Shown here: in pieces, positions 37,951 to 57,978 of the stretch | Layout of the letters: every line of letters begins with the position of its first letter | How positions within the stretch are numbered: the stretch's first letter is position 1 | Sequence record: PP410321 | Origin: Escherichia phage vB_EcoM_CUA3 | DNA length: 64,000 nt | Direction: 5' to 3' (one strand) | Made by a program: the position numbers and the translations under genes | The notes under the pieces: generated by a model | The model's input: only the letters and a program-made list of their open reading frames with translations | What the model was told of the DNA's origin: nothing | Database searches by the model: none

Positions 37951-39567
<1,617 letters not shown>

Positions 39568-39593
39568 TTTATTCTCCTCAAGTTGATAAGGCT

Positions 39594-39623
39594 ATAGTAT
39601 CACTACCATAGCCTTAGGTAAAC
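39594..39623 (-). promoter_or_regulatory. Early promoter (GTTTAC, 18 nt, TACTAT)
   Basis: Conserved cassette ...GTTTACctaaggctatggtagtgaTACTATagcc. Confidence 0.5.
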
Positions 39624-39625
39624 AC

Positions 39626-39853
39626 TTATTTTTGAATTAAGCCCATATAAAATTCAGCGTCTTCAGCATGCATACCATCGCAATATTCATCAGCCATAAA
39701 GCGGGTAAGGTCTTCAAGAGGACCTTGAACTTCAATTTGCATACTAAAGAATTGTGTGTCTTTGATATAAGTCATAGTCAAAGAAGGATAACGATTACGG
39801 ATAACTTCGTAAGTGTATTCAAAATCAACGATATCGATATTAACCTTAGCCAT
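39626..39853 (-). CDS. Hypothetical protein
   Basis: 75 aa from MAKVNIDIV with GAGGAAAAT RBS; ORF-track start 39871 lies in leader. Confidence 0.5.
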
Positions 39854-39885
39854 TTTATTTTCCTCACTCATTAGTTGATAGGTCT

Positions 39886-39914
39886 ATAGTATCATGCCTA
39901 TAGACCTTGTAAAC
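39886..39914 (-). promoter_or_regulatory. Early promoter (GTTTAC, 17 nt, TACTAT)
   Basis: GTTTACaaggtctataggcatgaTACTATagacctatcaactaatgag. Confidence 0.55.
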
Positions 39915-39916
39915 AC

Positions 39917-40177
39917 TTATTTTTGAATTTTATCGAGCCACTTACCGAGTTTAATCATTTCCTTAGTGGCTTTTTCCATACTTCTGAATTTAACCAGTAA
40001 AGGTTGGGCATCAACACCCATAACCAAAGTGGTTACAAGACTATGTTCACCTACAAGCCATAACGAATACGTTTGAATATCGAGCCCGTAATTTCGGTCT
40101 TTATGGACCCGTACACCCATTACTTCAAATTTCTCACTGGCTTTTTCTACTGCATCCAGGAAATCATCTTTGGTCAT
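39917..40177 (-). CDS. Hypothetical protein
   Basis: 86 aa from MTKDDFLD; upstream in-frame extension overlaps neighbouring gene. Confidence 0.45.
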   Translation of the reverse strand: MTKDDFLDAVEKASEKFEVMGVRVHKDRNYGLDIQTYSLWLVGEHSLVTTLVMGVDAQPLLVKFRSMEKATKEMIKLGKWLDKIQK

Positions 40178-40178
40178 A

Positions 40179-40562
40179 TTAGGCCTTAAAAGTTTTTTGC
40201 AAAAGTTCAATGATTTGGTCGACGTTCTGTTCAGTGACAATGCAATGGATTTGGGTCACGCCAGCCTTAGTAACAGGTTCGTCAACTTCATCTTGTTCGA
40301 CGTATTCACGGAAGCAATAGAACTCATCTTCATGCAATTCAAAATATTCCTCTAGTGTCCCGTCTGAACTAAAAACCTCACCATTCGCACATTTGATTTT
40401 AGTTACAAATTCGTCCCCATCCGAGGTCATAACGTCCTTTACTTCAAACCAGCCACCGTTTTCTTGGATAATATCGACCATATCATTATTATTGATAGGG
40501 CTGATATTGATAAAAGATTTGATACGCTCAGGACGAAGTTCGTATTTTTTACCGATTTCCAT
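40179..40562 (-). CDS. Hypothetical acidic protein, paralog A
   Basis: MEIGKKYELRP...ELLQKTFKA; paralogous to 40567-40938. Confidence 0.5.
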   Translation of the reverse strand: MEIGKKYELRPERIKSFINISPINNNDMVDIIQENGGWFEVKDVMTSDGDEFVTKIKCANGEVFSSDGTLEEYFELHEDEFYCFREYVEQDEVDEPVTKAGVTQIHCIVTEQNVDQIIELLQKTFKA

Positions 40563-40566
40563 TTTT

Positions 40567-40938
40567 TTAAATTCCAAAGGTAGATTTAATCAAGGCAACA
40601 ACTTCTGCCGCATTTTTGTGATTTACCTGTACATTGATAGTTTGGATATCAACAGCAGGAGCATCGCCATCAACTTCCAGGAAGTGGCAGAATTCCCATT
40701 CACCAAGTTCAAAGTACTCATCAACATCACCCATACTATTCAGGATGGTGCCATCTTTCATTTCAACTTTTTCAACAAAATAATCGCCATCAATATAGCA
40801 CATATCCAGGACTTTGAAGGAATTACCATGTTGTTCCATCNATCNNNNNATNCGCGNNNNNNAATTGTCATCAGGACTACCAGCGATGAATTGTTTTTTG
40901 GCAGCAGGGTCTAATACGTAAAATTTACCGATTTCCAT
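40567..40938 (-). CDS. Hypothetical acidic protein, paralog B
   Basis: MEIGKFYVLDP...ALIKSTFGI; shares termini and EYFEL motif with paralog A. Confidence 0.5.
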   Translation of the reverse strand: MEIGKFYVLDPAAKKQFIAGSPDDNXXXXXXXXMEQHGNSFKVLDMCYIDGDYFVEKVEMKDGTILNSMGDVDEYFELGEWEFCHFLEVDGDAPAVDIQTINVQVNHKNAAEVVALIKSTFGI

Positions 40939-40967
40939 TTTTATTTCCTCATGTAGTTGATAGGTCT

Positions 40968-40996
40968 ATAGTATCATGTTTAAAGGCATTGTAAAC
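40968..40996 (-). promoter_or_regulatory. Early promoter (GTTTAC, 17 nt, TACTAT)
   Basis: GTTTACaatgcctttaaacatgaTACTATagacctatcaactacatgagg. Confidence 0.55.
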
Positions 40997-41048
40997 CATT
41001 AAATGCCAAAAAGGGAAGACCGAAGTCTTCCCATTATAAATCAATAAC

Positions 41049-41954
41049 TTATAGACCAGCTAACAGGTCGTCCAGACCATCGTCATCAGAAGGACTTACT
41101 GATGGTTCAGGAGTAGTGGAACGGGTCGGTGTAGACGGTTTGGAATCATATGCATCAAGGTCTGCACTGAATGCGTCCAGGTCATCACCAATCTTATCAG
41201 CAGCTGCAGAAGCTTTAGCGGCAGCACCACCAAGAGCAGCAGTACCAACAACTTTCTTAAACTTGGCTTCGTTAGTTTCAAAGGATTTGAACTCGAGCAG
41301 TTTAGAAAGGTCGTGCATTTCTTCCATCAATTTAGCTTGGTAAGCTTCATCATTGATGTTAGGAATTTCAGACTGACCCATGAATTTGGAATCGTCGTAG
41401 TTTTTGAAGTCACCAACTTTCTTAGATTTCAGTACGAAGTTAGCACCATCAAACGGACATGTTACGTCAACCGGCACTTCACCAATATCGGTATCAACTT
41501 CAACCATCTGGTTGATTTTATCCATAATTTTCTGACCGAAACGGAATTTAAACACTTTACCTTCGTTAGCAGGCACTGCACTATCCTTAATAACAAGGAT
41601 GTTAGCCCAGAAGGAAGTTTTACGTTTCATCAGTTTGTATTCGGCGTTATTGGTATTATAGGTATCGTTCTGGTTCATGTATTTACATACAGGACAAGAA
41701 TCGAAATCACCGTGAGTAGACGTACAGTTTTCAATGTACCATTGACCATTTTTCTTAAAGCCGTGGTTAACGAGCTTAACGAATGGAGATGGATTTTCTT
41801 CGTTTTTCGAAGGTAGGAAACGAATTACCGCAGTACCAACACCATTGTCGTCTTTCAATTTCCATTCAGCTTTATCATCGGAAGAGAAAGAAGAGCCACC
41901 TTTCATTGCAGACAGTTGAGCAGCCAGTTGGGAAGGGTCTTTACGTTTGAACAT
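41049..41954 (-). CDS. 32: Single-stranded DNA-binding protein gp32
   Basis: 301 aa, same length as T4 gp32; collinear core; acidic C-terminal tail. Confidence 0.95.
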
Positions 41955-42019
41955 ATTATTTACCTTAGCAGATTTTAGCAGTTGTATTTTATTAACAGTT
42001 TTTAACAGATTAAGTTAGT

Positions 42020-42044
42020 ATATTAACACATTTGATATGAAGCA
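42020..42044 (-). promoter_or_regulatory. Possible MotA-box middle promoter for gene 32
   Basis: Minus strand ATGCTTCA + 12 nt + TAATAT. Confidence 0.35.
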
Positions 42045-42698
42045 TTAAAACTTACAAGATTTGATAGTTTCAATGAACAATTTACGAGCTTCTAAATTAT
42101 CGATTATAAGAATTTTCTTATAAGCATTTAATTTAGTCGAATACTTAGACCACACTAAATCGTTGGTCTGTTCATCATGTTTATTTATTATATCCATAAA
42201 TGAATCAAGCAAAATAAACGTTTCGAACGAAATAACATTCGATTGAAGGAGCTTAAAAATATAGCTCGAGTTAACTTTTTTATTATAATCAAAAATTTCA
42301 GAAAGCGCTTGAACTTCCACTTTCTTACTGAAATAATAGATGTTTTTGATATCATCCTCAAAAACTTGTTTTATTCTTTTAAGTCTACCGATATATTCTC
42401 GGTAAAAGACTAAGGCGTCAGCATCACTGATGTCGCCAATCCATGCGTCTTGGTTAGCCACCAAGTTACTCATGAAGATAAGAGCAAGCTCTTTCAAAGT
42501 GTATTTATCACTCAATTTCTCGAAGAAATATTTGTCACGACGTTTTTGGTAAGCCGTATCAGAGATTCGCATGACCCAGTTGTATTTGATAACGTCGTAT
42601 TTGGCGTTGAAGTGATGTTTGAGCATTAAGTATAGTGAATATACGCTCTTACCATTCACCATACGGTTATTGTTTGGTGGCATGCGAATCTTAATCAT
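42045..42698 (-). CDS. 59: gp59 helicase loader
   Basis: 217 aa, same length as T4 gp59, long collinear identity. Confidence 0.9.
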   Translation of the reverse strand: MIKIRMPPNNNRMVNGKSVYSLYLMLKHHFNAKYDVIKYNWVMRISDTAYQKRRDKYFFEKLSDKYTLKELALIFMSNLVANQDAWIGDISDADALVFYREYIGRLKRIKQVFEDDIKNIYYFSKKVEVQALSEIFDYNKKVNSSYIFKLLQSNVISFETFILLDSFMDIINKHDEQTNDLVWSKYSTKLNAYKKILIIDNLEARKLFIETIKSCKF

Positions 42699-57949: not shown

Positions 57950-57978
57950 ATAGTATCATGTTTAAAGCAGAAGTAAAC
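57950..57978 (-). promoter_or_regulatory. Early promoter (GTTTAC, 17 nt, TACTAT) for motA
   Basis: GTTTACttctgctttaaacatgaTACTATagacctatcaaataaatga. Confidence 0.55.

Follow-up and report, generated by a model that had tools for sequence, protein, structure and literature searches.

Two small open reading frames lie side by side on the minus strand of the frd-32 island in the window (the whole 64,000-nucleotide stretch of phage DNA analyzed here), and the resemblance between their products raises the questions of whether they are true paralogs, how long ago the two copies parted, how they are transcribed, and what their products might do during infection. Our reading, to which we assign a probability of roughly 0.85, is that these are the genes frd.2a and frd.2b of a JS98/JS10-like Dhakavirus, a tandem pair of paralogs of ancient origin whose T4 counterpart is the early gene frd.2.

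Identity of the locus and of the two FRD2 genes

A megablast comparison of positions 39600-41050 with GenBank phages returned JS10, JS98, and MN04 at ≈94% identity and 100% coverage. By its sequence, the window comes from a T4-type coliphage of the JS98/JS10 kind, in the genus Dhakavirus of the Tevenvirinae. The minus strand carries all of the frd-32 island genes discussed here, and in the sense of transcription the island reads 59, 32, frd.2a, frd.2b, ORF86, frd.3, an N-masked stretch with frd.1 at its 5′ end, frd, and td. The genes are as follows.

42045-42698, minus strand: gene 59
41049-41954, minus strand: gene 32
40567-40938, minus strand: frd.2a, 123 aa (Pfam FRD2; a-type subfamily; JS10 annotation)
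40179-40562, minus strand: frd.2b, 127 aa from MEIGKKY (Pfam FRD2; T4 Frd.2 ortholog; JS10 annotation)
39917-40177, minus strand: ORF86, 86 aa, phrog_4423 (PHROGs, E = 1e-49; synteny)
39626-39871, minus strand: frd.3 homolog, 81 aa from the ATG at 39871 (Pfam Phage_FRD3, E = 3.5e-38; JS10 annotation)
start at 39567, minus strand: frd.1 homolog, at the 5′ end of the N-masked stretch
38153-38734, minus strand: frd

The JS10 record has a 75-aa version of Frd.3, compared with the 81 aa read here. Runs of N at 38731-39567, 38367-38459, and 40841-40863 give rise to artificial long ORFs, and residues 26–33 of Frd.2a are partly masked by N. What had been listed as a gene at 38731 was rejected as an artificial 278-aa ORF that reads through an N run; JS10 has frd.1 and two more small ORFs at that place. 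An Rfam scan of 38500-42500 found known RNA families to be absent.

The first-pass annotation had described the ORFs at 40179-40562 and 40567-40938 as small acidic paralogs and had proposed an alignment of the two products as a check. The alignment bears this description out. BLASTP aligns Frd.2a with Frd.2b over the whole of both proteins (35% identity, 53% positives, E = 1e-20), well above chance-level similarity in short motifs, and the two proteins have in common a MEIGK(K/F)Y.L.P start, an EYFEL.E.EF..F.E core, and an L..TF tail. Both are acidic, with a pI of 4.3–4.5 and 21–28 acidic as against 9–12 basic residues. Values of dN/dS between 0.08 and 0.21, measured against JS10 and dhabil, place frd.2a and frd.2b under purifying selection. 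Because the similarity far exceeds chance, both are judged to be real genes, and the dN/dS values mark both as functional.

Family membership is equally clear. Frd.2a matches Pfam FRD2 (PF03197) at 106 bits (E = 1.7e-30) and Frd.2b at 131.2 bits (E = 2.4e-38), relative to a curated whole-protein gathering threshold of 29 bits, and both proteins match phrog_622. When the FRD2 profile was run against all ORFs of the window, no member beyond these two was detectable by sequence. When 1.84 billion representative proteins were searched exhaustively with the HMM, 48 clusters were returned, ≈38 of them of 85–138 aa, and no convincing cellular FRD2 homolog was among them; the family seems to be restricted to T4-like phages. 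Matches to giant RTX/HCBP_related and LRR proteins in that search were set aside as spurious, their scores being sums of weak repeats with no single stretch passing. The GenBank records of JS10 and JS98 already name the pair frd.2a and frd.2b, with the product given as "Frd.2 conserved hypothetical protein," so that the genes, the Pfam family, and the a/b naming are all known. With public annotations and a named Pfam family behind it, the pair carries little weight as a discovery.

Transcription of the island

Four regulatory elements were located around these genes.

41013-41032, minus strand: intrinsic terminator hairpin GGGAAGACTTCGGTCTTCCC followed by TTTTT, after gene 32 (terminator scan, RNA fold)
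40954-41001, minus strand: early-promoter cassette copy 3, upstream of frd.2a (repeat family, promoter scan, regular expression)
39872-39919, minus strand: early-promoter cassette copy 2, upstream of frd.3 and overlapping the ORF86 stop codon (repeat family, promoter scan, regular expression)
39580-39627, minus strand: early-promoter cassette copy 1, upstream of frd.1 (repeat family, regular expression)

JS10, dhabil, and VR5 conserve the gene 32 terminator, which ends the transcription unit lying upstream. Cassette copy 3 comprises a −35 element TTTACA at 40990-40995, a TG-extended −10 element TACTAT at 40968-40973, and the leader CCTATCAAC...GAGGAAAT, and no other promoter was found for frd.2a, frd.2b, and ORF86. 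The frd.2a stop and the frd.2b start are separated by 4 nt and the frd.2b stop and the ORF86 start by 1 nt, and the promoter scan found no promoter-like site on the minus strand between 40562 and 40938. Because the genes are separated by gaps of only 4 and 1 nt, with no promoter-like site between them, there is strong reason to regard frd.2a-frd.2b-ORF86 as one early operon that starts just past the gene 32 terminator. Gaps this short would favor coupled translation.

The repeat search found three local cassettes only, 65–100% identical. Two of the three are called by a sigma-70 scan (TTTACA, a 16-nt spacer, and TG-extended TACTAT), and all three fit the regular expression GTTTAC...TGATACTATAG.CCTATCAAC. 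Repeated cassettes that join an early promoter to a stem-loop, termed PeSL (promoter-early stem-loop), have been described in hyperplastic regions of T4-type phages (Arbiol 2010, PMC2839356; Comeau 2014, PMC4122927), and our data strongly favor the view that frd.3 and frd.1 are each equipped with a near-identical cassette of the PeSL type. The earlier statement that each gene has its own early promoter cassette holds for frd.2a and for the gene at 39626 (frd.3); it fails for frd.2b, which has none, and the ORF at 38731 is artificial. Nor is frd.2b transcribed independently, since its promoter is that of frd.2a. The description of the genes as early is reasonable, given a promoter of the early sigma-70 type of T4 and the published description of T4 frd.2 as early (PMC12152347).

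Two of the cassettes can also be folded. Copy 2 contains a 10-bp hairpin at 39880-39907 that extends over the spacer and the −10 element (−15.4 kcal/mol, z = −4.4), and copy 1 contains a 13-bp hairpin at 39587-39616 over the same elements (−18 kcal/mol, z = −4.8). The arms are GGTCTATAG...CTATAGACC and AAGGCTATGGTAG...CTATAGCCTT, and the arm outside the −10 box varies between the two cassettes in a compensating manner. Neither the cassette behind gene 32 nor the VR5 cassette at the frd.3 position has the hairpin; the spacer ...TTTAAACATGA is found there instead. Cassette-like promoters number nine on the minus strand of the window by regular expression. Six distant cassettes of the form GTTTAC...TG.TA(C/T)(A/T)AT lie on this strand at 57978, 58323, 60758, 62092, 44265, and 16573, and two of them, at 57978 and 58323, nearly match the copy behind gene 32 letter for letter.

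The third gene of the putative operon, ORF86, encodes a near-invariant protein of pI 8 (dN/dS 0–0.04). It always lies 1 nt behind the last FRD2 gene, of either type, in Dhakavirus and Gaprivervirus relatives, and the T4 island is without it. A PDB sequence-profile search with ORF86 gave zero matches. ORF86 may be a functional partner of Frd.2.

Age of the duplication and variation in copy number

The frd-32 island was taken from ten other phages, and every FRD2 copy in it was located by HMM. Frd.2b is 65% identical to T4 Frd.2, 64% identical to one copy from an S16-like Salmonella phage, and 62% identical to one copy from the Gaprivervirus MN01. Frd.2a is 84–92% identical to the a-type proteins of JS10, VR5, and MN01 and 66% identical to the second S16-like copy. 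Any a-type compared with any b-type gives 33–38% identity in the family alignment, with 37% for the two copies of the window. In a neighbor-joining analysis, the a clade, whose members include VR5, Gaprivervirus, and one S16-like copy, has 100% bootstrap support, and the b clade, which includes T4 Frd.2 and the other S16-like copy, has 99%. The codon-aligned DNA of frd.2a and frd.2b is 49% identical, which is near saturation. These relationships argue strongly that frd.2b is the ortholog of T4 frd.2 and that frd.2a represents a sister subfamily. The duplication appears to be older than the split of Dhakavirus, Gaprivervirus, and S16-like phages; that it predates several Tevenvirinae genera follows, as we infer, from a and b clades that span genera and from the DNA identity of 49%.

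Present-day phages differ in how many copies they carry. The a-then-b tandem order is seen also in the S16-like contig, and the Mosigvirus ATK47 has a tandem FRD2 pair, a-like then b-like, of which the first copy is unannotated. A single FRD2 copy is found in T4, JS09, X20, and KM16. Among closer relatives, the a+b state is found in the window, JS10, and JS98 (16 megablast records with a query coverage of at least 80%), the b-only state in dhabil, and the a-only state in VR5; IME08, C6, and PSD2002 are probably b only as well, judged from a coverage of 75%. After an ancient duplication, copies would have been lost or reshuffled lineage by lineage. The comparison with dhabil draws attention to a repeat at the two gene starts.

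40924-40942, minus strand: 19-nt direct repeat AAAAATGGAAATCGGTAAA at the frd.2a start (repeat search; dhabil alignment)
40548-40566, minus strand: 19-nt direct repeat AAAAATGGAAATCGGTAAA at the frd.2b start (repeat search, 376-nt spacing; dhabil alignment)

Relative to dhabil, the window has 376 extra bases that are bracketed by this perfect repeat, which consists of the A-rich leader and the MEIGK codons of each copy. The alignment with VR5 shows one whole gene, frd.2b, neither more nor less, inserted after the stop codon of frd.2a, with TAA microhomology at the indel. The order of the island differs further afield, being 32 – frd.3 – frd.2 – frd.1 in T4 and 32 – b-type – frd.3 – a-type – ORF84 – frd.1 in MN01.

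These data bear on two other histories of the pair. The first-pass annotation had spoken of a local duplication, and as far as paralogy and duplication at some time are concerned, the claim stands; a local event in the present phage does not agree with clades that span genera at 100% and 99% support or with a DNA identity of 49%. A recent tandem duplication in the present phage lineage, followed by fast divergence, would fit two adjacent genes of similar length on the same strand and the 19-nt identical stretch common to both starts. That stretch is nevertheless accounted for by the MEIGK codons and the A-rich leader, a leader that T4 has too. The closest kin of each copy lie in other genera (65% between b and T4, 66% between a and the S16-like copy, compared with 37% between a and b), the tree contradicts a recent origin with bootstrap values of 100% and 99%, the DNA of the two copies agrees at only 49%, and dN/dS values of 0.1–0.2 give no sign of accelerated divergence. 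We therefore regard a recent duplication as highly improbable.

A less remote alternative treats the a and b types as alternative cassettes, or alleles, of one slot behind gene 32, with the two-copy state produced by out-of-register recombination of a-only and b-only phages through short shared sequences. VR5 (a) and dhabil (b) do have the same flanks, namely the gene 32 terminator, promoter cassette, FRD2 gene, and ORF86; each indel removes precisely one gene, at the 19-nt repeat (376 bp) in one case and at the TAA microhomology in the other; and the island order varies between genera, as expected under PeSL-mediated shuffling (PMC2839356, PMC4122927). The tandem state could accordingly be secondary, joined by recombination, instead of ancestral. 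However, with a-then-b in the S16-like contig and a-like-then-b-like in ATK47, an ancestral tandem pair with repeated single losses is the simpler history, and we consider the allelic origin unlikely, at about the level of one chance in a few. An ancient tandem duplication remains our preferred reading. With its three states, the frd-32 island offers a clean natural case of a T4-type hyperplastic region in which single genes are gained and lost, and the a-only, b-only, and a+b natural variants could serve in the search for a phenotype of Frd.2, a conserved early protein of T4.

Other features of the island and of its relatives were observed alongside. Relative to JS10 and dhabil, dS is 0.16–0.42 in frd.2a, frd.2b, and ORF86 and ≈0.045 in the adjoining gene 32, and because the former values are 4–9 times that of gene 32, the comparison points to a mosaic ancestry of the island. 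In ATK47, the unannotated FRD2 gene (locus 2501-2863) lies immediately upstream of the annotated frd.2, and the first ≈43 residues of the two copies are roughly 60–70% identical (by eye, from the alignment) and the remainder is divergent, which suggests gene conversion or partial duplication between the tandem copies. Mosigvirus Frd.2, compared with that of T4, is 83% identical in the C-terminal module and only 30% identical in the N-terminal barrel; it looks like a domain mosaic or, alternatively, like a protein whose tail is far more constrained than its barrel. The a-type FRD2 gene of phage pEC-M719-6WT.2 (locus 2462-2932) contains an internal tandem duplication of ≈22 residues (VDTQTIHVQVNHKNAAEV DGDAP) that covers the linker and the C-terminal strand.

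Predicted structure of the FRD2 proteins

Structure prediction had been proposed as a further check on the pair. AlphaFold2, run on the family alignments, produced models of both proteins with a pLDDT of ≈87 (86.9 for Frd.2b and 86.7 for Frd.2a; pTM 0.66). The order of elements is the same in both: β1, two helices, β2–β5, a short helix, an acidic linker, and a C-terminal segment. In the Frd.2a model one of the two helices is resolved, residues being masked there. The strands of the Frd.2b model span residues 6–9, 38–47, 50–58, 63–65, and 84–86, with equivalents in Frd.2a; the linker at 91–96 has a low pLDDT, and the C-terminal segment closes with a 12-residue helix. From these models, FRD2 proteins are predicted to begin with an SH3/LSm-like barrel, built of five strands and two inserted helices over ≈88 residues, to continue with a disordered acidic linker, and to end in a C-terminal module of ≈28 residues with a strand and a helix. 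Between Frd.2a and Frd.2b, identity is 45% in the barrel and 21% in the C-terminal module.

Foldseek searches of the PDB with both models returned nothing at E ≤ 0.001, the best values being 0.26–0.31. The weak matches were to the Tudor domains of PcrA/UvrD and 53BP1, chromodomains, FeoA, the LSm domain of Edc3 (E = 1.9–2.6), and eS4. Because no PDB match reached E ≤ 0.001 and the matches were equally weak across barrels, the proteins were not assigned to the LSm, Tudor, or SH3 families. Against BFVD, Foldseek gave 50 matches at E ≤ 1e-3, all of them T4-like phage proteins, and with the Frd.2b model it retrieved GoF of phage VR7 at E = 1.1e-5 with a probability of 1.00. A PDB sequence-profile search with the FRD2 alignment gave chance-level matches only (MRCK kinase, E = 0.03) and no Sm motifs, and hhalign of the FRD2 profile with the single sequences of T4 GoF and MotB.1 gave probabilities of 1.7% and 0.3%.

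Possible functions of the pair

Functional information comes from T4. An amber mutation in T4 frd.2 leaves the efficiency of plating near 1 (PMC12152347). In a CRISPRi-ART screen, frd.2 was the only T4 "Fit" gene of unknown function, a gene-level call that is marginal, with a score of 0.83 (p = 0.027) as against 3.29 for gene 32. In the work on the related T4 proteins, mRNA was stabilized only by the gain-of-function mutant GoF(D25Y), and wild-type GoF and MotB.1 were without effect (PMC12152347).

We picture Frd.2a and Frd.2b as what would be small acidic non-enzymatic adaptors made in the first minutes of infection. The barrel would probably bind a host or phage macromolecule. The C-terminal module, the strand of which is without a partner in the monomer model, would pair or oligomerize, and, with tails this divergent, each copy would have partners of its own.

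More specific roles can be weighed against the same observations. Early, small, acidic proteins whose copy number varies among close relatives, encoded where mobile promoter cassettes flank a hyperplastic region, might be effectors of anti-defense or host takeover, as the first-pass annotation had proposed for loci of this kind, with a presence or absence that tracks the host defense repertoire. Both copies are, however, under purifying and not diversifying selection. Scans with Pfam, PHROGs, NCBIfam, and PADLOC and the literature gave no link between FRD2 and defense, the domain scans returning only FRD2, and neither similarity to characterized anti-defense proteins nor a literature link speaks for such a role; the T4 frd.2 amber mutant is without phenotype on laboratory strains (PMC12152347), strains that lack most defense systems. 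We hold this role to be doubtful. Marginally less probable still are Hfq-like RNA chaperones that would bind RNA directly through an LSm fold. A pI of 4.3–4.5 and 21–28 acidic as against 9–12 basic residues are unfavorable for RNA binding, and direct binding is disfavored because both Frd.2 copies are strongly acidic. Wild-type GoF and MotB.1 were inert in the reporter assay, and Frd.2 is not among the proteins reported for it (PMC12152347). The PDB matches are nonsignificant and favor Tudor, SH3, FeoA, and eS4 barrels as much as LSm, and the sequence search detects no Sm motifs.

More speculative again is a specialized pair, in which the C-terminal modules direct homo- or hetero-oligomerization and different host targets, and the a, b, and a+b polymorphism reflects selection by host strain-specific factors such as defense systems or the RNA-decay machinery. 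If this long shot were true, the slot would be a small host-range or counter-defense switch in T4-type phages.

Comparison with known systems

The nearest counterparts of the pair, read as ancient tandem paralogs of frd.2, are those of JS98 (EF469154) and JS10 (EU863409), in which frd.2a and frd.2b have the same order and spacing and the island DNA is ≈94% identical. Protein identity to the window copies is 92% for the a copy and 88% for the b copy. The differences are point differences only, and the window represents another isolate of the same phage group.

The promoter cassettes share with PeSL elements a repeated, near-identical early promoter combined with a stem-loop, placed beside small ORFs that vary in presence and order among relatives. 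The local cassettes also match the T4/PST promoter type, TTTACW-N17-TAYWAT. They differ in that the stem-loop of two local copies lies inside the promoter, over the spacer and the −10 element, with no separate upstream terminator. JS98 and JS10 are unmentioned in the PeSL papers (PMC2839356, PMC4122927).

At the level of the fold, Kim et al. 2025 (PMC12152347) place T4 Frd.2, GoF, and MotB.1 in one group of early proteins, for which an LSm-like/SH3-like domain is predicted at the N terminus, and they report that GoF and MotB.1 run as monomer and dimer. Our models resemble this family in the bent five-stranded antiparallel barrel, the flexible linker, and the variable C-terminal domain, a likeness between predictions only. 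In sequence, by contrast, T4 GoF and MotB.1 are without detectable similarity to FRD2 (hhalign below 2%), which accords with the published view that these sequences differ greatly (PMC12152347). The only functional data for the family come from the GoF gain-of-function mutant and not from Frd.2 (PMC12152347).

T4 Frd.2 itself, the founding member of the family, is 65% identical to Frd.2b across the whole protein. The two agree in size, both start with MEIGKKYEL, and both carry the C-terminal module GVT.IHCIV...NVD.II.LL.KTFK. T4 frd.2 likewise lies in the frd-32 island and has an early-type promoter. T4 differs from the window in having a single frd.2 copy, located after frd.3, whereas the order in the window is 32 – frd.2a – frd.2b – ORF86 – frd.3 – frd.1. 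Frd.2a is more distant from T4 Frd.2, at 35% identity and with an unlike C-terminal module, yet it still scores above the Pfam threshold for the family.
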